Positions 28,532-43,641 are shown, counted from the stretch's first letter. The stretch is 64,000 nucleotides of DNA from Minisyncoccota bacterium (GCA_035438505.1 DAORIM010000001.1:7808-71807), one strand, 5' to 3'. The notes: generated from the sequence alone by a model not told the origin. Translations and numbers: made by a program.

Positions 28532-29323
28532 TTATTTCCTATAAGGCGCTTCGTCGGTCGTAGGGTTGTAGAATCTGTATCCCTTACCAGGAACGAGCAT
28601 AAATAATTCAGTCCCTTCGATCTTTCTGGGGAGCTGGAGTTTTGTTGCATTTCGAATGAGAGATTTCGCAACCGCATCACGAATCCTCTGTTGTCCCTCC
28701 TCTCCAGGCTTCGGATTCTGCCCCATCCTTACTATGGATGCCTCTATAGCTTCGTATGGCACATAGTCCTTATGGTGTGGAGCCAGCTCATAAAGACTCC
28801 GAAAGACGGCGTAATACAGAGACTTCCTGCTTTTGAATTTGATTTCCTTTATCTTGCCAGTGGTCCCGTATTCAAATGCCCCATCTTCTCTCATTCGAAT
28901 ATACCTGTATGGAGCATATTCATCCTTCTGGCTGAACATCGTACCTGGGACTTTGGACTCGTTCTCTACGCGAACGACTGGCCGTATATCGCGGACTCGC
29001 ACGTAAAAATAATTTGGATATAGAACTACATCATCCTCATCCATGCCTGTTGGCACAAATCCATTCTTACCCTCATCCTCATTTTGGAGGTACGTAATTG
29101 CATGCTGGGATTCGAGCCAACTCAGGTAAGCAAGCCTGTTCGATTCCATGTCTTGCTCTTCTGGCTCATTGATTTCGTGAGTCCTCACAGGCAAAGGGTC
29201 GTGAGTGCCAATTTCATGCTCAGGCATATGCTGTCTGCACGAATTCCAGTACCGAACCATTTCGGCATTGTATCTACGTATATGCTCCGTGTACCTGAAT
29301 GGAATATCCATGCAATTGTGCAA
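28532..29323 (-). CDS. hypothetical protein (island)
   Basis: 263 aa, no recognisable family; intact ORF with moderate GC. Confidence 0.4.
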   Translation of the reverse strand: MHNCMDIPFRYTEHIRRYNAEMVRYWNSCRQHMPEHEIGTHDPLPVRTHEINEPEEQDMESNRLAYLSWLESQHAITYLQNEDEGKNGFVPTGMDEDDVVLYPNYFYVRVRDIRPVVRVENESKVPGTMFSQKDEYAPYRYIRMREDGAFEYGTTGKIKEIKFKSRKSLYYAVFRSLYELAPHHKDYVPYEAIEASIVRMGQNPKPGEEGQQRIRDAVAKSLIRNATKLQLPRKIEGTELFMLVPGKGYRFYNPTTDEAPYRK

Positions 29324-29454
29324 GTACTATATAGATTGCCACTTTGCACAGGAAAAAGCACCCGTGAGGGGTGCCTGTTCCGTTGAGCCATATGAAACCA
29401 TTACCGTACCCTTAAACGTCCCACGTAGAGGCACGTGGAACCTCACAAGAGGTC

Positions 29455-29916
29455 TTATGCCTCCTCTGCTGGTGGTGCTTTGGTCTTTAAGGTTCCTCCC
29501 ATGAGTTCCTTGAACTCGACTTGGCATTTCGACATGGCTGGATTGAGGGTCATCATGACCGTAAACGGTGATGTCTGACCAGCCATTATCGGGTTGTACT
29601 CTGTGAGAGCTTCCGAAGAGTTCACGAACTGTCCGTCTTCCGTGAAGGTGGTACCCACTGCCGTGACGTTCTCGATGGACTTATCACTGATGTTCTTTAC
29701 CTGGCCAGTGATATGGAAATAGCCATACTCCTTGTAGCAACGGTAGCTGATGAGTTCGAGCTTGTCTGCTCCAGTAGGTGCCGAAGCACTAGGAGTGGAT
29801 GTGGAATCGCCCATGCTTCCGAGGAAGCCAAGGACAATAAGAATGGCTACTGTAATAAGAAGTATTTTCCCTATCCGATGTTTCTTCTTCGGCTCGGGAT
29901 TAGCGGTGTCAGTCAT
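29455..29916 (-). CDS. hypothetical membrane-anchored protein
   Basis: N-terminal TM helix (ILLITVAILIVLGFLG), Ser/Thr linker, beta-rich C-terminal domain. Confidence 0.4.
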   Translation of the reverse strand: MTDTANPEPKKKHRIGKILLITVAILIVLGFLGSMGDSTSTPSASAPTGADKLELISYRCYKEYGYFHITGQVKNISDKSIENVTAVGTTFTEDGQFVNSSEALTEYNPIMAGQTSPFTVMMTLNPAMSKCQVEFKELMGGTLKTKAPPAEEA

Positions 29917-30029
29917 AATTTAAGAGGCTAAGGATTATATGGATTATTTAGCCGTCTTAGGGCTATGTGGAAAAATATATAACAATATTGAAAATTTGGA
30001 TATTGGCTTCTTGGATACACGCTTTGTGT

Positions 30030-30251
30030 ATGAAGAAGTCCACCCACACTAAAGAATATGCCGTGTTTGTGGAACGACTTAAGAATGCTCGTTTGGAGGC
30101 AGGACTGACTCAAGTACAGGTAGCGAAAAGGATTGGTCGCCCTCAATCCCATATTTCAAATATCGAAAGTGGCCAGCAGAGAGTGGATGTAATTGAACTT
30201 AAGCGATTCGCTAAGTTGTATAGAAAGGCGATGGATTACTTCTTGAAGTAG
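30030..30251 (+). CDS. XRE-family helix-turn-helix transcriptional regulator
   Basis: Cro/C1-type HTH LTQVQVAKRIGRPQSHISNIESGQQRVDVIEL; start set at internal Met (MKKSTH...). Confidence 0.65.
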   Translation: MKKSTHTKEYAVFVERLKNARLEAGLTQVQVAKRIGRPQSHISNIESGQQRVDVIELKRFAKLYRKAMDYFLK

Positions 30252-30253
30252 AA

Positions 30254-30724
30254 CTAACTTTTGATAAATTCCACCAAAAGTGATCGGTACTTGTCTTGTA
30301 ATTCTCTACTTATAAGTGAGTCTGGAATTTCTGTTAATGAGGCTTCTTCGTTGAGTAGGTCGCTACATCTATCAAAATAAAAGGCTTCTGGCGTAGCTAT
30401 AAACATATATGCGAGCTTCCATCGCTCACATATTGCTGCTGCCGTTCTCCTAATCTCATCGCTATCTAGACGAGAACGATACTTTACCTCTACCAGGAAG
30501 ACCTCTTTCGGGTCATGGGATACGAGAGCAAAGTCTGGAGCGTTTCGAATATTATCCAGTAGCTCACGATCATTTATTTGCCTGGTGTATTGCTGGAGTT
30601 CAGATACGACAGACTCATACCCAAAAGGAATGACTGTGTACTTCTCAGCATCGCGAAACATCTGCTCAAAAACCAATTCCGCAATCTTCCCTTTAATTAA
30701 CTGTTTCGAGAAGTCCTTCTGCAT
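30254..30724 (-). CDS. hypothetical protein, possible PD-(D/E)xK nuclease fold
   Basis: Motif arrangement D...DFALVSHDPKEVFLVEVKYR resembles the D-(x)n-E-x-K restriction-endonuclease-like core; downstream partner of the giant helicase operon. Confidence 0.35.
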   Translation of the reverse strand: MQKDFSKQLIKGKIAELVFEQMFRDAEKYTVIPFGYESVVSELQQYTRQINDRELLDNIRNAPDFALVSHDPKEVFLVEVKYRSRLDSDEIRRTAAAICERWKLAYMFIATPEAFYFDRCSDLLNEEASLTEIPDSLISRELQDKYRSLLVEFIKS

Positions 30725-30726
30725 AC

Positions 30727-31611
30727 CTACTTACTCTTGAAGTTATTGATGGCATAGGACAGGATGGCACCAATAATGTCTTGATTCCCTGGTTGTGTGT
30801 ACTTAACCATTTTCTGCTTAGCTTTGTTGATTTCCGAGAAATAAACTCCGTTGCTCAAGACTTGAACATCAAGGAGCTTATTGAGCTTTATGGAGAACGT
30901 CTTTCCGTCTCCCCTAAAGACAACTCTCTTATTCGTTATCACCAATTCACCAGTACCAACGGGTACGAGTCCAGTCTCGCTAACAAGGTGTCCCCTAGAA
31001 CCTCCTACCCTATAGCTAACTCCCTTTGCGATTCTAAGACTCACTCCCTGCGATCCTCCTTCGTAACGGCGCTTGATGACTTTCTCCTCAATAAGCTGCG
31101 CTGGCTCTGCCCAATAAACCTTTTCGTCCTTTTCAGTTATCAGGTTAGGCACGAAAACTTCGGGAATATTTCCCAATTGAATCTCGTTCAATAGACGAAG
31201 TCGAGCTAGCTCCTTCTTATTTTGTGCAATCTCAACATCAGATATTCCCAGATGCTTCTGGATTCGAATCAGCTCTTCTTCCTCTTCCTTCGTAATCTGC
31301 CCGTCTGACTTCGCACTCACAAGTGCGGTCTGGTATGCACCAATCTTTGCGCGCTTTGTTTCTTCGTCAGTTAAGCCCAAATCACTTTGCCTTTTCTTAA
31401 GCTCTTCGACTTCCTTATCATCCAGTACCCCATCGGCAGCCGCCTCAACAAGAGACATTTCAAATTCCTTTTTATTCAAAGACCGCTGCTTTGATTCTTT
31501 ATATTTATCTGCAATCACTTGAAATATTTTCATGGTTTTAATGTTAAGTGTTTCTAGTCCCACGGCAATACGGGAATCGAGAGCATCCATAGAACTTGCC
31601 GAGACGGCCAC
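30727..31611 (-). CDS. hypothetical protein with N-terminal acidic helical repeats and C-terminal beta domain
   Basis: Repeats KEVEELKKRQSDLGLTDEE / KEEEEELIRIQKHLGISDVE; C-terminal GVSYRVGGSRGHLVSETGLVPVGTGELVITNKRVVF... possibly bPH-like; alternative start at 31533 would remove the overlap with the upstream gene. Confidence 0.4.
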   Translation of the reverse strand: MAVSASSMDALDSRIAVGLETLNIKTMKIFQVIADKYKESKQRSLNKKEFEMSLVEAAADGVLDDKEVEELKKRQSDLGLTDEETKRAKIGAYQTALVSAKSDGQITKEEEEELIRIQKHLGISDVEIAQNKKELARLRLLNEIQLGNIPEVFVPNLITEKDEKVYWAEPAQLIEEKVIKRRYEGGSQGVSLRIAKGVSYRVGGSRGHLVSETGLVPVGTGELVITNKRVVFRGDGKTFSIKLNKLLDVQVLSNGVYFSEINKAKQKMVKYTQPGNQDIIGAILSYAINNFKSK

Positions 31612-34600
31612 TTCTTAGAATCATTCTGGAACTGCAGCGAGGACAAACCTTATCGCTTAAAACAGGCTCAGGCTTGTTAGCTCTCTCAATAATTCTTTTA
31701 CCCTTACATTGCCTACAGAACCTCCCATAGCCAGTGATAAGGGAAGAATCTCTGAAATCCTGGTCCTCTCTCACCTCCTTACACTTCGGACAGACTTTCA
31801 TCTTTCCGTTCTGCAATCCCTGAACAGTTTCGTGAATAGTATGCAGGAGAGGATTCATTCCCGACTCCTCTTTGACTAACCTGCCAAGTCGTTGATTCAG
31901 AGTCTCAATCGGGTTCTCGCCTACATTAAAGCGATTGATGCGGAGGAATTTGTATCCATAGCTCTCAAGAACTTTCTGACGATATACATCTTCGTCCGAA
32001 TAATAATTCTGATAGTTAAACTCATTGATGACATCAACATCCTTGAAATGCTCCTTGAAGCCGTCATATTCGATAACGATCTTATGTTCTCTCCCCTGTT
32101 CGCTTTGGTACGACACCAAGAAATCAACTTTATATGCTGGATGAGAATACGTTGGGTCCAATTGCTTCAAGTACTTCCCAATTTCAAATTGAGGCACGAA
32201 TTCAATTCGTTCTTTGTTGTCATTCCAGAAACTCGTTTGGTAGAACCAGTTTAAGACTTCGGCTTCCTTACCTGACTTCTGGTCTGTTTCTTCAATACCC
32301 TTCTCCTTCTTAGCCTCTTCAAGAAGGTTAAAGTAATGCCTTAGAGCATCTCCTATGGAGCCATTGAATTTATCAAGAGGCTTACTAAGTACAAAGTGTA
32401 CGCATTCTTTTCCACGACTAAAGCCCACATTCAATCGCTGAGCTTTAATCTGACCGTCCTCTTCCACATCAACATTATTGAGGTCTTTTATGAAAATGCC
32501 CCAGAGTCTATCACTATGCTCCGAAGCTACCATTGGGTAGTAGATAATGTCCCTTTCCTCACCCTGACAGGTATCAAAAGTCATTATCTTCAAATCCAGC
32601 TTCTCGAAGTAGAAATCACGTTCTGGAAGCTTATTTATCATCTCGACCAATAGTTTTTGCTGGTTGGTATGTGGGGTAATGATTCCAACGCTCATTTCTT
32701 GCCCCTCTTCCTTCATCCGTTCCAATTCGGAAATGATGAACTCTACTTCTGCCTTGTTGGAGTTTGGGTAGACTTCGTCCTCTGGGGCGGCCTCTATGTA
32801 GGAAAACTTGATTACGTCGTCAATATTCTTGCCGCGTATCTTCATTACCTGGAGACTCTCTTGATAGAAGTACTTGTTCGAGTACGAGATTATTTCCTTG
32901 TAGCCACGGAAGTGTTTCCGGAGCTGGGTCCTGTAATTGCTTATGAACTCTACAAACTCAAGAATAGATGTCTTGATATTGAACTTTTCTAGCTTAACGA
33001 GCTTTGTACCCTCCGTTGAAACGTTCTCCTTAAATGAACGCTCAAGCATATTAAGGTACTCACGATTCGTATCTGAGCGAGCTTGAGCTGCCTTGATGTT
33101 GCTGAACTGCTTCTTATCTCCAAGGATAAGTACCTTCTTTGCTCGAAGAAGTGCCGGAAATGCCTGAGCAATGCTTACCTGCGAGGCCTCATCTATGATG
33201 ACCAGGTCAAACATTTCCTCTTCAAGAGGAATATATTCTGCATAGTCTCTGATACCAGCGAGGATACACGGGAAGGCCTTCTGAAGTTTGCGGAACTGCT
33301 CTTTAGGAAACTTCTGCTTATTCTTAATAACAGCCCTTAATGCCTCAGCATCGGTTCGATTGTGCTCATAGAAATCAATAAGCCTTCCATCCAGAAGATA
33401 TGCAACCTGCGTGATTACCAATTCTTCAATATTCTTCTTCCTCAATGCGTAGTTAAGGTCAGGGATCTCTGAGAATTCTTTTGTGAGCTTCTGCCTGAGG
33501 CTTAAATATCTCAATTGCTTATCAAACAAGAATTCGTCAGAAGAAATAATCAGGTTGCTAAAGAGGCTGGAGAATTCAGCAAAATCCAGACCTGCTTTCT
33601 CAGCTGTTCTCGTGTACTTCTGGGTGAAATCTCTCAGATAAGTAGTCTCCTCTCCGGCTTTTACAAACTCTTTAAGATATTCAGTTCCGCCTTCTTCTTT
33701 CAAAAGGCGGTGAACTATTCCCACGTAATCTAATCCCGTGGAAAGTTTTGTGTTCACTTCCTCTCCAAGGGAATGTATGTAATCGAAAATGGCATATGCG
33801 TCTTTCAGTCTCTGAATTTCCTGATGAGCCATTGCTACCGGGGTGCGGAATGCTTGCCTGAAACGTAGGTCTACTTCTCCAACTTTCTTTTTCTCGAACA
33901 AAAAGCCTACGAGAAAAGCCTTAAGGCTCTCATACTCTTTAATGAAGTCAGCCAACTTCTCTATTTCTTTCTTTGAGAAGGAATCAAAAATGGCTATTGA
34001 ATCAAGTTTCTCTTTGTATATATCCTTTAGCTTCTCGATACTCTCAGAGGCGAGAGAGAGGAAGCGAATCACATTCTCATAATCCTCAACTGTACCGATA
34101 TCTTTGGAATTGACTCCAATTATTTCGAACAGCTCCTTCCCTACTTCCGAGTCGTAAGCTCCCTTAAGGAGGTTGAGCGAAGACCGTGCTTCACTAATTT
34201 CAATAGGAGCCTCTTCAAATGGAAGGGCTTCGTTAATATCAAAGGTAAGTTCTTCTGTATTTATAGAACTCTCTAGGGCGACGAGTTCTTTTACTTCTTG
34301 AATATCAATGTCTTCACAGGCCACTACTTCAGCCTCCAGGTCTTCTCTCAGTGAATTTATAGACTTCTCGATATTCCCCACGATCACCTCATGATTCTTT
34401 CTTACCGCGTGATGGTGGGTCTTAATATCCTGGTAAGTACCTTGAGCAAGAATCTTAGCGTAAGTGTTTCCTGTCTTACCGAGTCGAAGAATTGGGTTCT
34501 GGAAGTTTTCAGCATTCCTGACCTTATTAATCGTCTGGGTAATATTATTTTCAACGACATCCAGAGCTTCTTTCTTATCAGACAAAACGAGTACGGATTG

Positions 34601-36106
34601 CTCTCGAAGAACGGCATCGAAGATAATGGCCGTAATAGTGTGGCTCTTACCAGTACCAGGAGGTCCCTCAATGACTAGATACCGGCATGAGTCTTTCCTT
34701 ATTGCAGAGAGAATTTGAAGCTGTTCTGCATTAAGTGGGATAGGGCTTGAAACTACAAGCCTCTCGGTTATGTCAGTATCATCCCATTCTTTCTCTACCT
34801 CTGGATTACAGGGTTCAGGGTTGTTATAGAGGAAGTCTCCAAGCAGCTTGTTGAAAGATTCGGATAGCAATCCCCCCTCCTCGCCAAGCTGTTTAAGAAT
34901 GTCCTCGTAGTCATTTACAAGAGCCTCATCAGACTTATCGAAGAGCGCTATATAGCAGGAGTTGGTAATCCGTACAGTTGGCCCTTTCGCCACCTGGGCT
35001 TTTTCCTCAACAAATGAGACATTACCCTTCGCTTCAAAGAAGTTGATTATCTCCGTTAATATGACGGAAAGAACTTCTTGAAGGTCAGTCGTGTGCTGAG
35101 CCAGATAAATGATTCGCTCTGTAATTGTTTGAAGGTTCCCCTTTTTCCCACTAAGAACATTGTTCTCCTGGACTATATATTCCAGAGCCTTCTTGTTTAT
35201 GTATATTTGTGAATCAAACTCTAGCGAAAGCACCTCATCCTGTCTCGTTATACTTATCGGCACGTAAAATATTGGGTACTTTGCGTTACCAAAAGCAATA
35301 TCGCCAAAATAAAGGTAGAAGTCCTGCTTTTCTAAAATGCTCCTATTGCGAGACATCTCAAATATCTCCGCAAACAAATCGGCAACCTGTAGACTCTCAA
35401 AAAAGGAATTGAGTGTGCTCTTAACTTCTGAGAGTGCGAAAACGCTCTTTAGTTCTTTCTCAAGATTTACTTTCTCCTTTGCAATAAAAAGATTAAGGGT
35501 CTCAGAAACCCTGCTCTCCACTAGACGCAAGAGCACCTCGGAAAGCTCCTCTTCAACCAGAAAAATATTCCCTTCATCCCCCAATGTGAGGTTCTGTAGT
35601 GGCTTATCAAGCTTTTCAATAAACGGGTCTACCAATTCGACACGGATTGTTGCTCGTGCTGAATCAATTGCCGTATTTAAGGCAATATCGTATTCCGTTT
35701 CGTAAAGTGTACCGAGCCTCTCAATATCCTCCGCGATATTCTTTATTATTTTGTTTATCTGAGCAGCACTTATTTTTTCGACCTGAAGCTTGACCAAGTC
35801 GAGTAAATTCTTAGGTAGCTTTGTTTGATAAACACCCTTCTCTATCTTACTGAGTACATCTCTATCAAAATTCTTATTAACTAAAGACCAGACTAGCTTA
35901 TTGAAAGTTTCGTACTTTTGAAGATTCAAACCGACAAGTAAGTTGTCATTGTTCCTAAATTTAATAGCCCTACGCGGCAATTTCTTCTTGTGAAAATCGG
36001 ACTCCAAGAAGTCCATGAAGTACTTTGCTACATCCTTAAAGAAAAGGAGTCCGTTCTCGGCCGATGGAGTAGGAGTTGTTTGCATGTCTTGAGTTAATAG
36101 TACCAA
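31544..36106 (-). CDS. giant SF1 (Upf1/DNA2-like) helicase with N-terminal DUF4011-like region, C-terminal restriction-endonuclease-like (DUF559/Vsr-like) domain and topoisomerase-type C4 zinc ribbons
   Basis: 1520 aa; Walker A GPPGTGKSHT, LIIDEASQV (AAA_11), TFDTCQGEERDIIYY (AAA_12); C-terminal HKIVIEYDGFKEHF nuclease-like core; CPKCKEV...CRQCKG and CPRCSSRMILRSGRLGKFYGCSRFPYCRGT zinc ribbons; AT-rich codon usage. Confidence 0.75.
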   Translation of the reverse strand: MVLLTQDMQTTPTPSAENGLLFFKDVAKYFMDFLESDFHKKKLPRRAIKFRNNDNLLVGLNLQKYETFNKLVWSLVNKNFDRDVLSKIEKGVYQTKLPKNLLDLVKLQVEKISAAQINKIIKNIAEDIERLGTLYETEYDIALNTAIDSARATIRVELVDPFIEKLDKPLQNLTLGDEGNIFLVEEELSEVLLRLVESRVSETLNLFIAKEKVNLEKELKSVFALSEVKSTLNSFFESLQVADLFAEIFEMSRNRSILEKQDFYLYFGDIAFGNAKYPIFYVPISITRQDEVLSLEFDSQIYINKKALEYIVQENNVLSGKKGNLQTITERIIYLAQHTTDLQEVLSVILTEIINFFEAKGNVSFVEEKAQVAKGPTVRITNSCYIALFDKSDEALVNDYEDILKQLGEEGGLLSESFNKLLGDFLYNNPEPCNPEVEKEWDDTDITERLVVSSPIPLNAEQLQILSAIRKDSCRYLVIEGPPGTGKSHTITAIIFDAVLREQSVLVLSDKKEALDVVENNITQTINKVRNAENFQNPILRLGKTGNTYAKILAQGTYQDIKTHHHAVRKNHEVIVGNIEKSINSLREDLEAEVVACEDIDIQEVKELVALESSINTEELTFDINEALPFEEAPIEISEARSSLNLLKGAYDSEVGKELFEIIGVNSKDIGTVEDYENVIRFLSLASESIEKLKDIYKEKLDSIAIFDSFSKKEIEKLADFIKEYESLKAFLVGFLFEKKKVGEVDLRFRQAFRTPVAMAHQEIQRLKDAYAIFDYIHSLGEEVNTKLSTGLDYVGIVHRLLKEEGGTEYLKEFVKAGEETTYLRDFTQKYTRTAEKAGLDFAEFSSLFSNLIISSDEFLFDKQLRYLSLRQKLTKEFSEIPDLNYALRKKNIEELVITQVAYLLDGRLIDFYEHNRTDAEALRAVIKNKQKFPKEQFRKLQKAFPCILAGIRDYAEYIPLEEEMFDLVIIDEASQVSIAQAFPALLRAKKVLILGDKKQFSNIKAAQARSDTNREYLNMLERSFKENVSTEGTKLVKLEKFNIKTSILEFVEFISNYRTQLRKHFRGYKEIISYSNKYFYQESLQVMKIRGKNIDDVIKFSYIEAAPEDEVYPNSNKAEVEFIISELERMKEEGQEMSVGIITPHTNQQKLLVEMINKLPERDFYFEKLDLKIMTFDTCQGEERDIIYYPMVASEHSDRLWGIFIKDLNNVDVEEDGQIKAQRLNVGFSRGKECVHFVLSKPLDKFNGSIGDALRHYFNLLEEAKKEKGIEETDQKSGKEAEVLNWFYQTSFWNDNKERIEFVPQFEIGKYLKQLDPTYSHPAYKVDFLVSYQSEQGREHKIVIEYDGFKEHFKDVDVINEFNYQNYYSDEDVYRQKVLESYGYKFLRINRFNVGENPIETLNQRLGRLVKEESGMNPLLHTIHETVQGLQNGKMKVCPKCKEVREDQDFRDSSLITGYGRFCRQCKGKRIIERANKPEPVLSDKVCPRCSSRMILRSGRLGKFYGCSRFPYCRGTRNT

Positions 36107-36222
36107 GTTTCTTCATAATTTAACTGGGTTCTTAACATACCACTTATCCAAAAAGGCCTTATTTAAAGGCTCTCTTTAGATTTCTTTGAGGTTTTCTTTA
36201 GAAAATATCCAGATTTTCTATA

Positions 36223-36741
36223 TCAATTCTCTGGCTTCCAGGTACCTAAAACAATGTAGTAGAAGAGGCGACGTCCGAATTCAAAAAGAAGAGCTACTGC
36301 AATTAAGTAAGCGACACTATAGAGCAACACTTCAATCCAACTACCCCTTGTTAGGGCAATATCTTCAATCTCTACTGAGGGCAGAGTGTCATTGTTATAT
36401 TTCGCGTCCAGTATTTCTCTTGGTGAACTTCTTACCTCTTCCTCCCCGCACGCTATCCGTAGTGTATATCGCTGAGCATTGCTAAGGGATTCAAGGCCAA
36501 GACTCGAGCTGTACCCTGAGAGATCGATTCGCTTATCTCTAGAGGCTTGGAAAGTAGAATGGTTCCCTCCTGTGCAAATAATCCTATGGTCCACGACGAG
36601 AGAGTCAGGCTCATTCTCGTCATAGATAGCTATGAGCATTACCAGAGTCATGATTCCAAAAAGACCGATATAACCGACTTTCAAAAGTCGATACCACCAC
36701 TTTGAATTCAGGTCTGCTAATGAATGAGGCTGTTTGTTCAT
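36223..36741 (-). CDS. hypothetical membrane protein
   Basis: Two TM helices (N- and C-terminal) flanking a soluble domain; 172 aa. Confidence 0.35.
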   Translation of the reverse strand: MNKQPHSLADLNSKWWYRLLKVGYIGLFGIMTLVMLIAIYDENEPDSLVVDHRIICTGGNHSTFQASRDKRIDLSGYSSSLGLESLSNAQRYTLRIACGEEEVRSSPREILDAKYNNDTLPSVEIEDIALTRGSWIEVLLYSVAYLIAVALLFEFGRRLFYYIVLGTWKPEN

Positions 36742-36879
36742 ATCCTTGATAACTAGGATACCAAATTTCTACTTGTTAAAGCTTGTAAACGTTTATAAAC
36801 GAAAGAGGTTCAAACCAGAGAGGTGGTTTTGACGTCGTTATGATTGAATCATTGGCTTTTACGCTTTGACACCCCCTAC

Positions 36880-37020
36880 CAGCTATCCACCAAATGTAAA
36901 AAATGTGAGGCTCTGCTTTCCAGTAATGAGGTTCTAACCTCGTGAAGCCACCTCCACCGACATAGAACTATATGGCGACATATAGAAGCATAGGAGAACC
37001 GCCTCATGGGCGGTTTTCTG
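36880..37020. repeat. island repeat unit A (GAGGTTCTAACC core + downstream hairpin)
   Basis: atccaccaaatgtaaaaaatgtgagg...gaggttctaacctcgtgaagccacctccaccgacatagaactatatggcgacatatagaa then hairpin gaaccgcctcatgggcggttttc; near-identical 3' half at 37705-37770, homologous 5' half at 41176-41235. Confidence 0.7.
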
Positions 37021-37046
37021 ATTGTCTAACTACGCACATATCATTC

Positions 37047-37607
37047 CTACTCAAAGCGATGGAATGTGAACCATTTCATGGTACCTACCGGAATTCCATA
37101 CACCTCTTCAATCACAGTTCTGGGACTTCGGAGCTCAACCGAATTCCAATCCAGCCCGAGTGAGTTTGCTGTTGTCTTTAGCGCATCTTCGCTGGGACCC
37201 TCCAATTCGACATATGTTGGTATCTTCGGCCATGTATCGATATCCACCACCACGTCACCCATATGAAACGTGTACCGCTTCTTCTCCTGATGTCGGTACG
37301 CAACATAGCCAAGGCGTTCTAAGAGTGCCTCAGCGGCATCAGCGTTATCTACCTCGAACTCAATCTCTTCCGTACCTTCAGCGGTTATTTCTGTCCGGTG
37401 CTTATAGGTGAGCTTCGTTTTCCCATCACACGTACGCAGTCGGAGAATTTTATGCGCACCGTCGCGCCAGGTCATCGCATTGTCATAAATTATGCGTTCT
37501 TGAAGGAGGTATTCTCCCTTGTCCTCAGCGCCTAACTCCTCGAGTTTCTTGATAAGTTCCTCCTTATCGATCTCGAGAAACCTGACCTCGATTTCTCTGT
37601 AATTCAT
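37047..37607 (-). CDS. CYTH-domain protein (CyaB/thiamine-triphosphatase-like)
   Basis: N-terminal YREIEVRF (ExExK) motif and further acidic residues typical of CYTH triphosphate tunnel enzymes; 186 aa. Confidence 0.7.
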   Translation of the reverse strand: MNYREIEVRFLEIDKEELIKKLEELGAEDKGEYLLQERIIYDNAMTWRDGAHKILRLRTCDGKTKLTYKHRTEITAEGTEEIEFEVDNADAAEALLERLGYVAYRHQEKKRYTFHMGDVVVDIDTWPKIPTYVELEGPSEDALKTTANSLGLDWNSVELRSPRTVIEEVYGIPVGTMKWFTFHRFE

Positions 37608-37649
37608 GTCGTTAGTATAACCCTGGCTGATGGTGGCCCGAAACTATCT

Positions 37650-37795
37650 CCTACCACCCATCCACGATCCGTAAGAAGTTAGGCGAGCTGTCCTGAATCA
37701 GACAGGTTCTAACCTCGTGAAGCCACTTCCACCGACATAGAACTATATGGCGATATATAGAACAGTAGAAACCGCCTTTGAGGCGGTTTCTACCT
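37650..37795. repeat. island repeat unit B
   Basis: ...caggttctaacctcgtgaagccacttccaccgacatagaactatatggcgatatatagaa then hairpin gaaaccgcctttgaggcggtttc. Confidence 0.7.
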
Positions 37796-37816
37796 ATCTC
37801 TCGTATTGCATTAGCT

Positions 37817-38113
37817 CTACAGGTACGCCGTTTCTTCAATAAACGCCACGACAAGGCCCGGTGACGGAGAGTTCGGCTCTATAATCACTTTCTTCCCCTT
37901 TAGGGCTGCTGATAAATCATCCACTTCAAACGCAACATGCGGTGTCGTGAGGACCAGGGCGGGATACGTAGCATCAGGGTCAAACCGCATCCATTGAAGT
38001 CGGTATGGATTCGCTTCATGATCTGTAACTGTCATCTTGAGGTGAGCAAGATACATTTCATCTTTTTGTATTTCTTTCGTGGGGATCCCTGTGTGGTTGT
38101 ACTTCACCATCAA
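37817..38113 (-). CDS. VOC (glyoxalase/bleomycin-resistance) family protein
   Basis: Single beta-alpha-beta-beta-beta module, PHVAFEVDDL motif; 98 aa. Confidence 0.4.
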   Translation of the reverse strand: MMVKYNHTGIPTKEIQKDEMYLAHLKMTVTDHEANPYRLQWMRFDPDATYPALVLTTPHVAFEVDDLSAALKGKKVIIEPNSPSPGLVVAFIEETAYL

Positions 38114-38218
38114 AGTATACCAATTGCTTACGAATACCGGTTAACGCATCAAACCGCCGGAATTGGCGGTTTGATGCAACTGACAGTCCAGGGTGCCATC
38201 CCTACACGTAGCTGTTTG

Positions 38219-38881
38219 CTACATAGTGAGGTAGATCTCTCCTGCTAGTGTTTTGATTCTGTACGATTCCATTTTCGGTCCAGGCATGCCGGGCGTTCCA
38301 GATGGCATGCCAGGGAGTGCGATTCCTGATATCTCGGGTTTCTCGGTAGTGAGTGTAGCGATGACTTCGAGAGGAACGTGTCCCTCTACCACATACCCAT
38401 CGATGATAGTCGTGTGGCAGCTTTCAAGCTCTGGTCCTATGCCGTGCGTTGCTTTAATTGAAGCCAGTTCTTCGTCAGATACATTATTAACTACGACATC
38501 TGCCGACTGTGCTTCCAGTTCCGCAATGAAGCCGCCACAGCAGCTACACCCTGGCGACTTGTATACCTCCATACGCTTGCCGGCGAGTTCAGGATGATTG
38601 TCAGCGACAGTCTTTCGTTCAGGCTGCTGTGCGAAGAGCGCCAGCGACCCACTCACAAGAACTGCAGCAACAAGCCCCGCCATGATTGGTCCCCTTAATT
38701 TCTTTTGCCTGCCGTACAGGAACCAGCCGATGGCAACACCAACTACTGCCCCTATAAGGAGCATCATGGCTAATGAAAGTAGGTCATTCCCCACTGCTTC
38801 CGGATGGTCTCCGGTATGTGCAAGCGTGATGAACGGGAGCGCGTACGAGACTGCGCCTCCCAGTAGTACTTTTGCTTTCAT
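38219..38881 (-). CDS. DUF411-family metal-binding protein (CopG-like copper-resistance associated)
   Basis: N-terminal TM anchor; KSPGCSCCGGF...SCHTTIIDGYVVEGHVP signature of DUF411; start set at MKAKVLLGG. Confidence 0.7.
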   Translation of the reverse strand: MKAKVLLGGAVSYALPFITLAHTGDHPEAVGNDLLSLAMMLLIGAVVGVAIGWFLYGRQKKLRGPIMAGLVAAVLVSGSLALFAQQPERKTVADNHPELAGKRMEVYKSPGCSCCGGFIAELEAQSADVVVNNVSDEELASIKATHGIGPELESCHTTIIDGYVVEGHVPLEVIATLTTEKPEISGIALPGMPSGTPGMPGPKMESYRIKTLAGEIYLTM

Positions 38882-38882
38882 G

Positions 38883-39434
38883 CTACTGAGGCCAGACTGA
38901 AAGCCAGTCGCGCATCGTCTCAATCTCGCGCGTCTGCGAGGAGACAATATTCTTAGCAAGCTCCTTCATCTCAGTGCGTGAGGTACCGGACTCAAGCATC
39001 TGCGCCATCATCACCGCCATCTCGTGATGGACGATCATTTGCGCGATGAACTCGCGATCGAAGTCAGATGCAGCTTGGAGGGCATCTACATCCCCTTCCA
39101 TTCCCTGCATGTGCATACCACCATGGCCCATGCTTTCGGTCGGTGCCCTATCGAACCATTCCTGGTACCACTGCTGCATCTTGCCGATCTCATCCGTCTG
39201 CGCGTCGATGATCTCTTGTGAGAGCGTACGCACGCGCTCATCCTTTGAGCGTTCAAGCGCGAGCTCTGCCATCTCGATCGCCCCTTCATGGTGCGGAATC
39301 ATCTGCTCGATAAAGTGAGCGTCTACATTGCCCATACCCATGTTATTACCCGGCATGCGTGGTGCGAATGTGTAGCCGAGGACGAGTCCCGCGATTAGTG
39401 CGACTCCCGCTATCAGTACTGTTTTATTCTCCAT
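38883..39434 (-). CDS. DUF305-family protein (copper-resistance associated, periplasmic)
   Basis: Signal/anchor then duplicated HH motifs (FIEQMIPHHEGAI..., FIAQMIVHHEMAV) and Met/His-rich linker MGHGGMHMQGMEG. Confidence 0.7.
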   Translation of the reverse strand: MENKTVLIAGVALIAGLVLGYTFAPRMPGNNMGMGNVDAHFIEQMIPHHEGAIEMAELALERSKDERVRTLSQEIIDAQTDEIGKMQQWYQEWFDRAPTESMGHGGMHMQGMEGDVDALQAASDFDREFIAQMIVHHEMAVMMAQMLESGTSRTEMKELAKNIVSSQTREIETMRDWLSVWPQ

Positions 39435-39469
39435 AGTTGATACTTATCTAATAAGCAAACTAAGGAATG

Positions 39470-39859
39470 CTATGGAGCCTTCGGGTTCAAAATGCCTTGC
39501 GAGAATAGGAGGGTATACAGAGGAACGGGTACTGGTTGAGCCGAGGGAAAAGCCCGATGTCTTTTCCTCGGCGGATGAAGAAGCAAAAGTCCAGACACGA
39601 GCACCGGCACGACAAGCAAGAGCGTGATGGAGTCGAGTGTAGGCTGTGCCTGCGAAAAGCTGCCGATCAAAAGGTCCATGTCGCTGTACGACATGGTGCA
39701 AAGCGACATACCAGCTACCGACACTTCGCATCCGGAGCCATGGTCTCCGTGTACAAGGGGAAAAGCGAAGGAAAAGGTGCCGATATACAGCAGTGCTCCG
39801 AGAAGGAGGAGGCTCGTAATACGTCTTAGCCCTAGTCCCGACATGCGCATAGTGTACAC
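39470..39859 (-). CDS. hypothetical small membrane protein
   Basis: Two hydrophobic segments, HGDHGSG and Cys/Met residues; sits between DUF4396 and DUF305 genes; overlaps an alternative longer ORF in another frame, so coding status uncertain. Confidence 0.3.
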   Translation of the reverse strand: MYTMRMSGLGLRRITSLLLLGALLYIGTFSFAFPLVHGDHGSGCEVSVAGMSLCTMSYSDMDLLIGSFSQAQPTLDSITLLLVVPVLVSGLLLLHPPRKRHRAFPSAQPVPVPLYTLLFSQGILNPKAP

Positions 39860-40318
39860 CTAGTGCCCATGGTGAGCATGCACAACCGCATGCCCCTTCC
39901 CTCTGGCAATGAGCCAACGGTTGACCGGAAACGCGAACATCCCCGCGACGACTAGCGCAAGCACCATGCTCCCCCAGAACAACGGGCTCGTAAGTCCAGC
40001 ATCCATAGCGCCTGGAATAAGGAGCATGACCGCATTGTCGACAACCTCCATGATTGCTATAGAGACTGTGTCTGCAGCGAACGCTAATCCAATGGCGGCA
40101 CCGAGTGTCATCCCATGCCGTAGGAGCGGAACCATCGTGAAGAGATACCCGAAGAAGAAGGCGAGTACCACAGCGAGCAGGATAGTTTGCCCTGTTCCCC
40201 ACCCAAGTGCCGTACCGATAACAAGACCGAGTACCTCGCCAGTCGCGCAGCCAGTTAGACAGTGGAGTGTGGCACTAAAGGCTACTTTGTTGAGGCTCTG
40301 CCCATGATTGTGATCCAT
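39860..40318 (-). CDS. DUF4396-family membrane protein (metal-homeostasis associated)
   Basis: HCLTGCATGE motif at first TM helix, four TM segments, His-rich C-terminus HAVVHAHHGH. Confidence 0.6.
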   Translation of the reverse strand: MDHNHGQSLNKVAFSATLHCLTGCATGEVLGLVIGTALGWGTGQTILLAVVLAFFFGYLFTMVPLLRHGMTLGAAIGLAFAADTVSIAIMEVVDNAVMLLIPGAMDAGLTSPLFWGSMVLALVVAGMFAFPVNRWLIARGKGHAVVHAHHGH

Positions 40319-40319
40319 A

Positions 40320-40586
40320 CTAAGCGCGCTTTAGTGAGTAAACCTTCAAGATCTCCTTCGTTGCCTTACCTTCCTGTCCCTTTTTCATCTGCCCGATGAC
40401 GCAGGTACCAAGATGGCTTTCCAGGAGCTGGTCTTCTACGCCTGACAGCGCACGCTTCACGGCCGAAGTCTGCGTGATGATATCAACGCAGTAAATATCC
40501 TCTTCAATCATTTTCTTTAAACCTCGTACTTGTCCCTCTATGCGATTTAGTCGGTTTAATACCTGCTTCTTTGCTTCTGTCTTCAT
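40320..40586 (-). CDS. csoR: CsoR/RcnR-family metal-sensing transcriptional repressor
   Basis: 88 aa; LNRLNRIEGQVRGL helix, conserved Cys (YCVD) and His (ESHL, GTC) ligand positions typical of copper-sensing CsoR. Confidence 0.8.
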   Translation of the reverse strand: MKTEAKKQVLNRLNRIEGQVRGLKKMIEEDIYCVDIITQTSAVKRALSGVEDQLLESHLGTCVIGQMKKGQEGKATKEILKVYSLKRA

Positions 40587-40593
40587 GCACTCA

Positions 40594-40614
40594 ATATACC
40601 CCCATGGGGTATAT
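40594..40614. promoter_or_regulatory. CsoR-type operator (GC-tract inverted repeat) in divergent promoter region
   Basis: atataccccCATggggtatat: arms ATATACCCC / GGGGTATAT match the known CsoR operator style (TACCC...GGGTA); located between csoR (-) and the DUF305 membrane gene (+). Confidence 0.6.
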
Positions 40615-40630
40615 TGTCAAAGTCTACACA

Positions 40631-41116
40631 ATGAGTATCCTAAACACTATGGATCATCACAAAAATTACGGTCGTCTTCTTCTCATGTTCGTCCTGCACC
40701 TCATTGCCATGTACGTGCTCATGTACGCCATGGTGGATGCCTTCGGAAATATCCACCCAAACCATAATCAGTTCTATATGGCGGCGCTCATGGCAGCGCC
40801 AATGGTGGTACTCGAACTTCTCATCATGGGTTCTATGTATCCGAAAAAGAGACAGAATGTGGGGATTATTGCAGTTGGTGTATTCCTGCTAGTTTGTTCA
40901 TTCATTTTCATCAGACAGCAGGTTGCCATTGGAGATGAGCAGTTTCTTAAGTCCATGATTCCTCACCACGCTGGGGCGATACTTATGTGCGAGAAGGCAC
41001 ACCTAGAAGATCCCCAGATTAAGGAACTCTGCGGGAATATCCTTTCGGGTCAGCAGACAGAGATTGAGTGGATGACGACCAAACTCCAATCTTTAGAAAG
41101 AGGTTCTAACCAATAG
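40631..41116 (+). CDS. DUF305-family membrane protein
   Basis: Three TM helices then KSMIPHHAGAILMCEK DUF305 motif; start at ATG 40631; last six codons (gaa aga ggt tct aac caa) are a copy of the island GAGGTTCTAACC motif. Confidence 0.55.
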   Translation: MSILNTMDHHKNYGRLLLMFVLHLIAMYVLMYAMVDAFGNIHPNHNQFYMAALMAAPMVVLELLIMGSMYPKKRQNVGIIAVGVFLLVCSFIFIRQQVAIGDEQFLKSMIPHHAGAILMCEKAHLEDPQIKELCGNILSGQQTEIEWMTTKLQSLERGSNQ

Positions 41117-41169
41117 TTCACGTCCGGACTCAAAATACGTGCGCTGATTGGCTTTTGACCTCTTTCCCC

Positions 41170-41290
41170 ACTACCACTCATCCACCACTTTTAAGAAATG
41201 TGAGGACGTGCCTTGCAAGAGTGAGGTTCTAAGCTCATGAACCCAATTCCACATGGTTTCATGAAAAGGCCCTAACGGGCCTTTTTGTAT
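41170..41290. repeat. island repeat unit C
   Basis: atccaccacttttaagaaatgtgaggacgtgccttgcaagagtgaggttctaagctcatgaacccaa then hairpin aaaaggccctaacgggcctttttg. Confidence 0.6.
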
Positions 41291-41362
41291 ATACACGTCC
41301 TTATCGAGGGGAGGTTCTATTATTCTGCAGCAACCTCTCAGAATTCCCCCACCTCTCGCCTC

Positions 41363-42034
41363 TTAAGATTTATCGAGCTGGGCCAAATGATGCGAGATGT
41401 CCTCTTCTGAGGTGACTTGGTAGGCAATACCTCCAACAGCTCTAAAGGTCTCACAAGCTCCCGTGGAGTCATCTATAAGGATGCTACGTTCTACTGGGGC
41501 TGAATATTTGTTTATGTAATCTCGAAATACTTCCCCTTCGTTATCACTTTTGAACTTACCTTCGTAGTAAGAGTTACTAATATCGTCGAAGTAGTCTTTC
41601 AACTTCAAGGCAGGGACAGTAAATCGGGCGAAACTATCCATATTCACAGTTATCAAAATAGTTGTATATATCTCTCGAAGATTCCCTACAGTTTCAAGGA
41701 CATTTTTTGAAACATTCATAGTTTCTGCATCCCTTACAAAGACTTCTCATATCTCTTCGAATGGAATTCTTAGCTGCTCAGACAGGAACTGATTTACTTC
41801 TTCTGCAGTATGTTTCCCTTTCATCCACTCCTCTGCATAGCTTTTCCTTTCTTTAAAAAGGAGTGTTTGTACCTTCTCATACTGTTCTGCAGGAAGACTT
41901 CGCCAAAACCGATCATGGCAAAGTGTTCCATCAAAATCTATAAAAAGAATCGGTTTCATTTGAGTATCAAGAATATTATACAATATACTCGCTCTAGGTG
42001 GATAAACTGCTGAGATTTTCAGCAGTTTATCCAC
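41363..42034 (-). pseudogene. HAD-superfamily hydrolase interrupted by an in-frame TGA (two ORF fragments in the same frame)
   Basis: Fragment 41747-42034 has motif I ILFIDFDGTL; fragment 41363-41719 has SILIDDSTG (motif IV-like); they are in the same frame separated by TGA at 41744-41746 and 8 sense codons. Confidence 0.5.
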
Positions 42035-42166
42035 CTAGAGTTATCCTGTCAAATTCATTGCTTTTACAGGTAAACCTGTGTACATTTACTAATAGCTCAT
42101 CTACCTAGTCGCAGAAGGAGTAAAGAGACCGCCATTTATGTGGCGGTCTCGGCTTTTATACTGGTA

Positions 42167-42658
42167 CTAAATACCGTGAAAGCTCTTATATTCCTTTTCA
42201 AGCTTCCTTTTTGTGTGCGAATAAGTGACCGGGTACGCAGTCCAAGGAATTAAGTATTCTTTTCTCTTTGCGAGAACTACCAGATACTCCCAGTCTCCGA
42301 AACAGATGCAAATCCTACCTTCTGTAACTCCGTCCTTATTGACTCTCGTGTTTTCCCAAACTTTTACATATTCAGGGTAAGAGTCGCAATCATCGATAAT
42401 AGGCTTTGGCCACTTTATCCTTTCGCATCGTGATTCATCTTTAACCCGCTCAACCTCTATCTTCCCTTCTGATATGAGGTGCCAAAATGTGGCCTCCTTT
42501 CCTTCTACTTGAGGATGCTTTTTAAGACCAAGTCGAGTACCGCGAAATACTGGTCTTTTGTGCACAAAATCTGCTTGGAAAAGTTCGTAAACGGCCTCTA
42601 AATAAACATCCCAGTCGTTTCCATGGTCAACTAGCCTGATTAATTCTGGTAACTTCAT
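42167..42658 (-). CDS. hypothetical protein (partner of DUF3800 gene)
   Basis: 163 aa, 11-nt gap to upstream DUF3800 gene; no family recognised. Confidence 0.4.
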   Translation of the reverse strand: MKLPELIRLVDHGNDWDVYLEAVYELFQADFVHKRPVFRGTRLGLKKHPQVEGKEATFWHLISEGKIEVERVKDESRCERIKWPKPIIDDCDSYPEYVKVWENTRVNKDGVTEGRICICFGDWEYLVVLAKRKEYLIPWTAYPVTYSHTKRKLEKEYKSFHGI

Positions 42659-42669
42659 GATGAGAGAAA

Positions 42670-43371
42670 TTAGCCCTCAGAGTGCCAGACAAAAAGATTG
42701 AACTTATCTTCACTAGGCAGTGTCGACTTTGTGAGAGAATATTTTGACCTCTCCTGAATTCTTTCAATTACTCGCTGTTTTGCTTCGCTAGATTTAATGC
42801 CTCGATTTAGGTGAGAGACAGCGCCTATTAGCAGATCCGCTAATTGCATAATTCCAACCTCCTCTGATCTTATGATCTGCATATTTTGAACAATACGCGA
42901 ATTAAAATCATACATATTTCTTCCCAACACCTTATGTAGTTGTTTAACCTTTGCGCCGCCACGAGTATCTTTTATATCAATATAAATGTCGTAGGTATCC
43001 TGAGGACTTAAAACGGCTTTTATCATTGTGAAATACATCCTGTAGTAAAAGTCGTCATGACTCATCTCGAACTTTTGGTGATCGAGAGCCATCTTATTAG
43101 GCACAACAAGTCCCCGAAAATGCAGGTCTGGCGAATCGAAGAAATAATCTACAAGATGCAGATACATCGGAAGTTTCTTTGGAGAAATCTTGGTCCACTT
43201 GATTTCAGTCCAAGGAGATAGCCCGTATTGCGTCTTTATCTCTCTTATTCGGGTCAAAATCTCCTGCGCTGAATCCTTTGGACACCACACAGCACCCAGC
43301 ACCATCGCTGTTTGGTGATCATTTTCGAGATGACAGCTCTCATCGCAATACAGGTTGTATTTAACGGCCAT
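42670..43371 (-). CDS. DUF3800-family protein
   Basis: N-terminal YNLYCDESCH motif (DUF3800 hallmark D-E-S), 233 aa, AT-rich. Confidence 0.55.
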   Translation of the reverse strand: MAVKYNLYCDESCHLENDHQTAMVLGAVWCPKDSAQEILTRIREIKTQYGLSPWTEIKWTKISPKKLPMYLHLVDYFFDSPDLHFRGLVVPNKMALDHQKFEMSHDDFYYRMYFTMIKAVLSPQDTYDIYIDIKDTRGGAKVKQLHKVLGRNMYDFNSRIVQNMQIIRSEEVGIMQLADLLIGAVSHLNRGIKSSEAKQRVIERIQERSKYSLTKSTLPSEDKFNLFVWHSEG

Positions 43372-43621
43372 TGGGATAATGATACAGGAAATCCCATCTT
43401 GTTGCTGGTTTTAGATAAGGAGGTTCTAATCTCCCAGCCCAGTTCTGGGTACCCCGTAGGCACGTATTGGCTTTCGTGTACTCATGGTGATACCCGACTC
43501 TGGTTCGTTTGATGAGCTCCTGAATAGAAATGTCTCCTTTAAAGAGGCCTGGACTCAATTCGTTGCGACGCATAAACCGGATTAGGAACGTCTTTTCATT
43601 TGCCCATAGCGCATACAACAA
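43361..43621 (-). CDS. hypothetical small protein at distal island edge
   Basis: 86-aa ORF spanning the GC transition; weak. Confidence 0.2.
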   Translation of the reverse strand: MLYALWANEKTFLIRFMRRNELSPGLFKGDISIQELIKRTRVGYHHEYTKANTCLRGTQNWAGRLEPPYLKPATRWDFLYHYPNGR

Positions 43622-43641
43622 AACCGCCCAACGGCGGTTTT
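43618..43641. terminator. hairpin at distal island boundary
   Basis: aaaaccgcccaacggcggttttgc, same accgcc/ggcggt stem family as the hairpins following repeat units A and B. Confidence 0.5.

Follow-up and report, generated by a model that had tools for sequence, protein, structure and literature searches.

What are the short direct repeats, each followed by a hairpin, that punctuate a low-GC island behind the transfer-messenger RNA (tmRNA) gene of a Minisyncoccota bacterium? We analysed a stretch of 64,000 nucleotides of this genome (GCA_035438505.1, DAORIM010000001.1:7808-71807; hereafter the window), in which an initial annotation had marked an 11-12-mer in four repeat units (A to D) and had read the units as reiterated att/tRNA-3'-derived junctions. 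It is highly probable that units A, B and C (about 170 nt each) and the decayed unit D are attR-type attachment-site junctions left by serial integrations at the tmRNA 3' end. The layout of a unit consists of the last 26 codons of a large serine recombinase (LSR) gene with their stop on the - strand, a copy of the tmRNA acceptor end and a fossil terminator on the + strand. The annotated junctions thus stood, while their derivation from the tmRNA held for the 10-bp core (CACCTCCACC and its variants) only and not for the repeated motif GAGGTTCTAAC.

The repeat family is real, far above chance and, within the window, specific to the island. Allowing at most one mismatch, GAGGTTCTAACC matched at seven + strand places and nowhere outside 24150-43431, against 0.15 matches in shuffled sequences. 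The 8-mer AGGTTCTA matched eight times compared to an expectation of 1.5, with seven of the eight being + strand copies in the island. Exact copies were fewer than had been annotated: of four claimed 12-mers, two exist (36928 and 41100), with the exact 11-mer found three times (24150, 36928, 41100) and exact AGGTTCTAAC four times. The copy at 24150 reads GAGGTTCTAACT and the copy of unit B CAGGTTCTAACC. Some annotated coordinates were 1-3 nt out (the copy of unit B starts at 37703 and not at 37706, another at 41100 and not at 41099), and two copies had been overlooked, at 36805 (GAGGTTCAAAC) and 41311 (GAGGTTCTAT). The annotated confinement to the island was borne out, with no copy outside 24.1-43.6 kb; the island has a GC content of 41-53% compared to about 55% in the flanks and begins directly after the tmRNA gene. 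The 10-mer CACCTCCACC, correctly annotated as common to unit A and the end of the tmRNA, was found at these two places only (24084 and 36949). The near-identical segment of units A and B, given as about 60 bp, is 59 nt long at 97% identity (36929-36987 compared to 37704-37762), and the likeness noted between the upstream halves of A and C extends to an 86-nt block common to A, B and C at 69-76% identity.

The origin of unit A is documented by an empty site. Contigs from two other, independent samples (L007 and L008) carry the CYTH and copper genes of the island, and in them the window sequence from 36949 onward is joined to tmRNA 24063-24093, with a junction reading ...GGACCGGAGTTCGACTCTCCGCACCTCCACC followed by GACATAGAACTATATGG..., that is, the tmRNA end and then the right half of unit A. 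The CYTH module (M2) adjoins the tmRNA in both. The empty site shows that a discrete insertion of 12.85 kb (module M1, 24094-36948) occupies the tmRNA acceptor end, that unit A is the attR of M1 and that the crossover took place within CACCTCCACC. A contig with SmpB and tmRNA (L009), from the same sample as one of the empty-site contigs, breaks off exactly where the tmRNA ends, as a contig would at a branch point. The annotated division of the island by the units into modules of 24.1-36.9, 36.9-37.7, 37.7-41.2 and 41.2-43.5 kb was supported, the first module being proven by this variant. The circular junction of M1 is predicted to read ...GAGGTTCTAACCTCGTGAAGCCACCTCCACCTCATTTCATCGGAAGG... and the empty site ...CTCTCCGCACCTCCACCGACATAGAAC....

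The conserved upstream half of the units is, rather than an RNA or a usual att arm, the last 26 integrase codons on the opposite strand, from a gene that spans attP. Homologous 26-residue tails in the same frame were found in units A, B and C and in the related loci L001, L003 (two copies), L004 and L016, following the pattern (V/I/L)RT(S/C)(L/I)(L/I)...(H/N)FLx(L/I/V)VDxW and ending in ...HFLxxVDxW at a stop of conserved position. Variation at the first, second and third codon positions was 283, 145 and 292, respectively, the second being about half of the first and third, and the alternation of ATG and GTG seen on the + strand of the units corresponds to a His codon (CAT/CAC) on the coding strand. 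The codon-position pattern, together with the conserved stop, indicates that the left half of the units is - strand coding sequence.

M1 carries the integrase gene (int) to which such a tail belongs. Its product, to which protein P0001 is identical, contains Resolvase (PF00239, residues 28-174), Recombinase (PF07508, 206-301) and Zn_ribbon_recom (PF13408, 315-373) domains and, in its translated N-terminus, a YARRS motif. The open reading frame (ORF) leaves the island and enters the tmRNA gene antisense for about 32 codons, reading ...RWRCGESNSGPN... from 24093 downward. When the int frame was instead continued across the core into unit A, frame arithmetic gave ...DEMRWR-WLHEVRTSLLESRASHFLHLVDSW and a stop, a reconstructed and in-frame tail of WRWLHEVRTSLLESRASHFLHLVDSW. 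Unsplit relatives (L011, L012 and L023) and the in-frame tails together argue that attP lies inside the integrase ORF, as in integrases of the Mx8 and SSV type; integration would then exchange the 26 C-terminal residues for antisense-tmRNA codons. We infer that this exchange of tails alters the activity or directionality of the integrase. A 67-aa ORF overlapping the int start has homologs at L013, L014, L023, L016 and L011 (26-75% identity) and no Pfam match; it could be a recombination directionality factor or have an accessory role.

The reconstructed integrase, used as a protein query, returned 100 homologs. Only a few carry a source name, and those named are all from Patescibacteria (Paceibacterota, Kaiserbacteria, Taylorbacteria and Gracilibacteria). 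At least 53 of the 100 have W-x-[W/C]-GESN[P/S]... at their C-terminus, as an antisense T-arm would be translated, which identifies them as integrated copies reading into a tRNA or tmRNA; int abuts the tmRNA in L003, L013, L014 and L018, and tRNA-Ala in L016. At least six homologs are unsplit (P0026, P0022, P0043, P0062, P0084, P0089). The first of these, P0026, runs through ...KGTFVPSSEVRWFSVFYIRTSILESRPTHFLRCVDSW... in one ORF on a contig without a tRNA (L011), and L012 and L023 are likewise unsplit. P0026 also aligns over 41350-41174 of the window in one high-scoring segment pair (E = 8e-10), and the region of unit C and motif copy E is an intact attP-like junction; in a tblastn search for int remnants beside motif copies D, F and H, only this C/E junction was significant.

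Four relatives (L001-L004) were recovered with a degenerate pattern built from the units. L001 is a metagenome-assembled genome of Minisyncoccia (Patescibacteria) that is syntenic with the right flank of the window (RNase J, L20), and the others are metagenome contigs. L003 is an independent complete case, with the tmRNA, an int ORF overlapping its end, 10.8 kb of cargo and then a unit that is 98.6% identical to unit C. L004 starts with the tmRNA 3' end, followed by three short integrase-less modules parted by units. Alignment with the L001, A and C units also allowed the decayed unit D to be recognised. Viral contigs, when scanned, gave no match to the patterns of the unit and the P' arm or to the int protein.

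With high confidence, we propose that serial site-specific integration at the tmRNA gene left the repeats as scars. Small integrative elements of Patescibacteria (the candidate phyla radiation, CPR) would encode an LSR with attP within the last ~75 codons of its gene, and this integrase would recombine attP with the acceptor end of the tmRNA gene. The P' arm would end up beside the tmRNA, supplying a new trailer and terminator, with the truncated int ORF running into antisense tmRNA. The P arm would end up at the far end of the element with the last 26 int codons, the stop and a copy of the core, abutting the former tmRNA trailer and terminator, and this composite would make up a unit. Each integration would regenerate the tmRNA end, allowing a new insertion that pushes older elements outward, and these would have lost int and most genes but retained their att-flanked ends, as cis-mobilisable elements (CIMEs) do. 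attP would carry three direct T-loop look-alikes, copies 1 and 2 belonging to the P arm and copy G to the P' arm, with one further inverted copy inside int in the subfamily of the window. The window would hold four stacked modules, M1 (int), M2 (CYTH), M3 (copper) and M4 (PDC-M04), bounded by units A, B, C and the decayed D (Table 1). All eight + strand copies in the window are explained as parts of these four stacked attP-derived junctions. M2 is a decayed att-flanked, CIME-like remnant, and M2-M4 and the L004 modules alike keep both att ends and have lost int, which fits the CIME/accretion scheme of the integrative and conjugative elements (ICEs) of streptococci.

Table 1. Features of the tmRNA-associated island, in window coordinates; att and module assignments are those proposed in the text.
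Feature	Coordinates	Strand	Details
tmRNA gene	23685-24094	+	ARAGORN; Rfam RF00023, 111 bits
Shared core CACCTCCACC, last 10 nt of tmRNA	24084-24093	+	attB side, integration target
LSR ORF of M1, integrated form	23999-25753	-	Pfam, translation
P' arm of M1, now in attL	24094-24160	+	Replacement tmRNA trailer, hairpin, TTGGCTTTTTC, copy G (24150-24160)
67-aa ORF overlapping int start	25692-25895	-	Homologs in the same place at 5 other loci
M1, 12.85-kb integrative element	24094-36948		int, PrimPol-AAA_25, TerB-like, 1520-aa SF1 helicase-nuclease, 172-aa ORF; motif copies G (24150, P' arm), H (36805, copy 1), A2 (36928, copy 2)
Unit A, attR of M1	36805-37020	+	Both motif copies, ATTGGCTTT (36851), tail, core, terminator
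Unit A, copy 1 (H)	36805-36815		GAGGTTCAAAC
Unit A, tail	36876-36956	-	
Unit A, copy 2	36928-36938		
Unit A, core	36949-36958		
Unit A, fossil terminator	36997-37016		
M2	36959-37723		CYTH gene only (37047-37607, -; Pfam CYTH), without integrase; motif copy B2 (37703)
Unit B, attR of M2	37651-37794	+	
Unit B, tail	37651-37731	-	WKWLHEVRTCLIQDSSPNFLRIVDGW, then stop
Unit B, copy 2	37703-37713		CAGGTTCTAAC
Unit B, core	37724-37733		CACTTCCACC
Unit B, fossil terminator	37764-37794		
M3, copper cassette	37734-41243		DUF411, DUF305, DUF4396, CsoR, truncated DUF305 ORF; without integrase; motif copies F (41100, copy 1), C2 (41223, copy 2)
Unit C and P' arm of M4	41100-41320	+	Copy 1 (F) 41100-41110, ATTGGCTTT 41147
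Unit C, tail	41171-41251	-	WNWVHELRTSLLQGTSSHFLKVVDEW, then stop
Unit C, copy 2	41223-41233		
Unit C, core	41244-41253		CAATTCCACA
Unit C, terminator	41265-41284		
G-type copy E	41311-41320		
M4	41254-43560		HAD-like fragment, 95-aa ORF, PDC-M04 A+B pair (42167-43371); without integrase apart from about 20 remnant codons at 41300-41340; motif copies E (41311, P' arm), D (43420, copy 1) and a decayed copy 2
Unit D, decayed oldest attR	43420-43641	+	Copy 1 43420-43430 GAGGTTCTAAT, ATTGGCTTTC 43466
Unit D, degenerate tail and copy 2	~43490-43560		
Unit D, outermost terminator	43621-43641		

The repeated motif, which on the integrase strand reads TTAGAACCTC, was examined in the same loci. The annotated resemblance to a T-arm was partly upheld: GAGGTTCTAAC does look like a T-loop (GGTTCTAA compared to GGTTCGAA, with GGTTCGGAT instead in a GC-rich relative), but it was not copied from one and is part of the element's own attP arms. 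In the form TAGAACCT (copy G) the motif was present in all eight integrase-gene 3' ends compared, at 42-100% protein identity, and was read as L-E-P in five loci, I-E-P in L013 and V/I-R-T-S in the window and L003, a difference of frame. Copy G always lies 58-59 nt before the TGG/TGC (W/C) codon that matches the acceptor CCA, even where the spacer DNA is unrelated. Copy 2 always lies 16 nt after this codon (window A and C, L011, L012, L023), and copy 1 lies 111-134 nt beyond copy 2 (window, L001, L003, L011, L016). These fixed distances hold in relatives of 28-78% identity, one of which has tRNA-Ala as its target. The two reading frames, the fixed spacing and the unrelated spacer argue that the motif is conserved as DNA around the crossover. 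Counted from the W codon, the real T-loop heptamer TCGAACC of the tRNA side spans nt 13-19, and the look-alike TAGAACC of attP spans nt 18-24. A shift of 5 bp from attB to attP is also described for the zinc-ribbon-domain (ZD) motif of the LI/A118 integrase (Rutherford et al., 2013; PMC3783163). By this analogy, copy 2 would be a putative ZD recognition motif placed 5 bp further from the crossover than the T-loop of attB. Copies 1 and G are putative accessory sites. An inverted 10-bp partner of copy G (24195-24204, compared to 24151-24160) was also observed, 26-38 nt from copy G in the window, L003, L011, L013 and L014; it is read as integrase codons P-I/V-E/Q-V-L (PIQVL in the window), and with copy G it could fold into a hairpin or make a dyad inside the 3' end of int.

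The extra motif copies (1, G and the inverted one) could alternatively be functionless fossils of older att junctions or duplications, with the int tail untranslated or an irrelevant read-through. L003 has two recognisable tail units 134 nt apart, the second of which contains its "copy 1"; in L001 and L004, what follows copy 1 is similar to a decayed core and P' arm, and unit D illustrates how such pieces decay. This reading is at odds with the retention of copy G at its 58-59-nt distance in eight of eight loci, in two frames and with unrelated DNA between, with the similar spacing of copies 1 and 2 in the tRNA-Ala element L016, and with an ORF that in every listed homolog continues without a stop through ~46 variable codons to the core. 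We consider it unlikely, although it retains a real chance of being correct.

The crossover sits in the CACCTCCACC core and not in the 11-mer. Within this core, family comparison points to the terminal CCAC. A reading in which the 11-mer is the recombination core of an integron-like or other cassette system, with crossover inside GGTT-CT-AACC and capture module by module, would draw on several observations. GAGGTTCTAACCTC resembles the crossover site of a serine recombinase in being a 6-2-6 palindrome whose centre is non-palindromic, and the conserved sequence starts exactly at copy 1 in each unit. In addition, a DUF305 ORF is cut exactly at copy F, ArsC of L004 stops right before a copy, and L004 has three short int-less modules. 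However, the sole demonstrated junction, that of M1, crosses in CACCTCCACC and not in the motif, all copies are direct without an R''/R' pair, and the island genes include no IntI or other tyrosine recombinase by Pfam. The right halves also differ (AACTTT, AACCAA, AAGCTC, ATTATT) and copy H has CA as its centre, which leaves this reading very improbable. An integron attC with GTTAGAA as R' was rejected, with no inverted partner, no IntI and no Phage_integrase match in the island.

Several points weigh against the proposal of serial LSR-mediated integration or against the roles given to the motif. Strains without M2-M4 were sought via the AHSA1 and CYTH proteins, and every contig found carries the same M2-M4, so that the origin of these modules by separate integrations is deduced from architecture alone; an uninterrupted site in relatives was found for M1 only. 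The circular (attP) junction of M1 was not recovered, and the Logan junction contigs reach only 31 nt into the tmRNA. Part of the motif conservation could stem from coding constraint (LEP, VRT). No known LSR site reaches as far from the crossover as copies 1 and G do (about -140 and +58), and the P' half-site lacks the inverted motif expected of a symmetric LSR attP. Finally, the crossover estimates conflict, with dyad symmetry and LI-type spacing giving core positions 3-5 and family comparison 6-9. A more far-reaching joint claim would be that a Patescibacteria-wide LSR clade combines tmRNA/tRNA acceptor ends as targets, a T-loop mimic 5 bp further out in attP, an attP inside its own ORF, whereby an antisense-tRNA peptide replaces the conserved 26 C-terminal residues (...HFLxxVDxW) in what would be an intrinsic switch of activity or directionality, and two direct mimic copies (about -140 and +58 bp) as arm-type accessory sites. 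Taken in its entirety this is tentative and rather doubtful; to our knowledge, no arm-type accessory sites are known for large serine integrases.

The hairpins annotated after the units are present (Table 1) and are + strand intrinsic terminators, 12-50 nt after each core and facing in the direction of the tmRNA. In the P' arm of M1 the hairpin AAGGCAC-GAAA-GTGCCTT (24106-24123) is followed by a T run. L003 has almost the same arm, in spite of an identity of only 75% between the int genes. Stems of the P' hairpin covary between loci (GGCAC/GTGCC, GGCTC/GAGCC, GACCC/GGGTC, with a GAAA loop, including L013 and L014), and a conserved "KGTFVP" in the integrase tail is the translation of the complement of this hairpin. 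The unit hairpins are fossil tmRNA terminators, one brought by each incoming element. It is very unlikely that the units are instead genes of a small structured + strand non-coding RNA, with a promoter near ATTGGCTTT, a GAGG-UUCUAA-CCUC hairpin and a terminator of its own, multiplied in the island. A + strand terminator does close each unit, the single-sequence fold of unit A has a z of -2.2, and ATTGGCTTT could by eye pair with AAGCCAAT. Against this, RNAalifold on seven units returned one 5-bp hairpin with no compensatory changes, Rfam gave no match at the gathering score or at E <= 10, conservation fits - strand codons with a conserved stop, the empty-site variant cuts the unit exactly at the tmRNA-like core and the terminators are part of the tmRNA context that precedes them. 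Folding each of the two strands singly likewise gave no supported structure. A tRNA-like fold with ATTGGCTTT as acceptor strand was seen by eye only, is absent in B, L002 and L004b, and is better explained by homology of ATTGGCTTT to TTGGCTTT in the P' arm.

Least credible of all is that the motif is an operator for an island regulator, or part of a short + strand leader ORF (M-K/N-P-x-P-P...) with attenuator. In its favour, each of the seven units has an SD-like (Shine-Dalgarno-like) GAGG 10 nt ahead of an ATG or GTG and a terminator further on, and copies D and H are found 50-75 nt upstream of genes on the - strand. Against it, the peptide has no conserved stop (in L002 the frame passes through the terminator, in C it extends over 12 codons), in the window the terminators have no + strand gene behind them, the start alternation is that of the His codon and copies also lie inside ORFs. 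A leader peptide MKP(P/L/V/I)PP was discarded for its non-conserved stop and because the - strand frame explains its pattern. Also discarded were a long ORF through unit A in another - strand frame, which C does not conserve, and an ECF-type or sigma-70 promoter in the motif (inconsistent spacing, with fewer promoter-like sites than in shuffles).

Between core and terminator, units A and B contain a 7-4-7 palindrome, CTATATG-gcga-CATATAG (36970-36987 and 37745-37762), which is kept in a different genome (L004, 4343-4360) and is flanked and overlapped by inverted TAGAA(C) copies of the motif. This palindrome in the right halves of A and B may be a B'/P' half-site or a regulator site.

By Pfam, nearly all genes of the island are on the - strand, including the LSR, PrimPol-AAA_25, the SF1 helicase-nuclease, CYTH, the copper cassette and DUF3800. 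The DUF3800 gene and a neighbouring 163-aa gene (42167-43371, -) match both parts of PDC-M04, a candidate system in PADLOC (E = 4e-96 and 3e-60), the 1520-aa helicase (30727-36106, -) matches PDC-S37/MkoC/Hhe models and the adjacent TerB-like protein matches PDC-S48; judged by these matches, the cargo looks like anti-phage defence. In M3, a truncated membrane-anchored DUF305 ORF (40571-41116, +) is divergent from csoR. Its end is supplied by a motif copy, as had been annotated: it closes with ...LERGSNQ and a stop inside copy F, exactly where the DUF305 domain is cut (profile position 57/151). An intact DUF305 gene lies at 38883-39434, and strong promoter-like sites were found both ways in the csoR/DUF305 overlap (40593-40641). 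A perfect 22-bp inverted repeat with a 5-nt spacer (CTCTAGGTGGATAAACTGCTGA/TCAGCAGTTTATCCACCTAGAG, 41992-42040), at the 5' end of ORF 41747-42034, is overlapped by a sigma-70-like site, has only chance miRNA-like Rfam matches and may be an operator or an RNA hairpin.

Other features were observed near the target genes or in related cargo. The window and four related loci have a tRNA-Ile with anticodon TAT near the tmRNA gene, no more than ~6 kb away and mostly at about 2.6 kb (window 21049-21125; L003 14258, L013 8521, L014 14628 and L018 14946); bacterial AUA is more commonly decoded by a tRNA-Ile with a modified CAT anticodon. LOOT RNA (Rfam RF03000) is encoded in the cargo of L003 (5970-6087) and L002 (5701-5818) at 77 bits compared to a gathering score of 46. 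In L016, a convergent tRNA-like 3' fragment (GTTCGAATCC...GGGTCCA, 3285-3331) stands beside the attR of the tRNA-Ala-targeting element and abuts the same bidirectional terminator, with no ARAGORN call.

One mechanism explains every copy of the repeat family and gives exact module boundaries for a CPR genomic island. The empty-site control and roughly 100 relatives document an LSR clade using tmRNA/tRNA 3' ends, for which there had been only a handful of unverified predictions (PMC7192596). The attP/attB pairs are precisely inferable in universally conserved genes, making these enzymes candidate genome-engineering tools for uncultivated Patescibacteria, which are hard to manipulate, and the ORF-spanning attP with its fixed-distance motifs offers a testable case of possible sensing of the integration state by a serine integrase itself. 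No paper on such elements in Patescibacteria was found in the literature.

Tandem islands at tmRNA genes are textbook knowledge. They are the subject of "Traffic at the tmRNA gene" (Williams, 2003), as cited in PMC4383910 and PMC9580842, and in the Islander/TIGER arrays at tRNA/tmRNA genes (tDNAs) an intact tDNA is followed by displaced direct 3' fragments with the integrase gene tDNA-proximal, gene and terminator are restored and the regenerated site is reused (PMC7192596). The window is alike, with displaced + strand copies of the tmRNA end at 36949 (10/10), 37724 (9/10) and 41244 (7/10) behind the intact gene, although the array members do not each have an integrase of their own, with int in M1 and none in M2 or M3. 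It differs in its catalyst, an LSR, and in its very short core (10 bp here, 5-7 bp in relatives). The Islander paper knew only tyrosine integrases to target tDNAs, and TIGER listed 14 of 297 serine-integrase (S-Int) cases at tDNAs as "not reported previously" and called for proof (PMC7192596). Tandem accretion at a tRNA or tmRNA gene is thus known, and an LSR as the catalyst at such a target is unusual.

In the CIMEs of ICESt1/ICESt3 from Streptococcus thermophilus (PMC5704250), integration genes are lost, both att ends are kept and the element stands in tandem with a functional one. By analogy, the architecture of M2-M4 fits that of a CIME; those systems differ in having tyrosine integrases that act at the ends of protein genes or tRNA genes, and conjugative transfer, whereas no transfer genes were seen here. 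The LI/A118 LSR (PMC3783163) has a distal 7-9-bp motif in the half-sites of both attP and attB, nearer to the crossover by 5 bp in attB; TAGAACC and the real T-loop TCGAACC would be its counterparts here. In the present system the shift is seen on one half-site only, with a terminator in the other, and two further direct motif copies lie far outside a 50-bp attP.

An attP in coding sequence is known from Mx8 IntP and the SSV-type archaeal integrases (PMC4383910; PMC6070905; PMC7253208). Integration gives Mx8 int a new 3' end, the altered protein being active with changed properties, and splits the SSV gene (PMC4383910; PMC6070905). An ORF-spanning attP in a serine integrase and three T-loop mimics at fixed distances, of putative function, appear to be undescribed. 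The Mx8 and SSV enzymes are tyrosine recombinases and the window enzyme has serine recombinase domains only (Pfam), so that it is alike in its working and not a member of that group; in contrast to them, only the last 26 codons are exchanged here, and the replacement tail is antisense tRNA or tmRNA.

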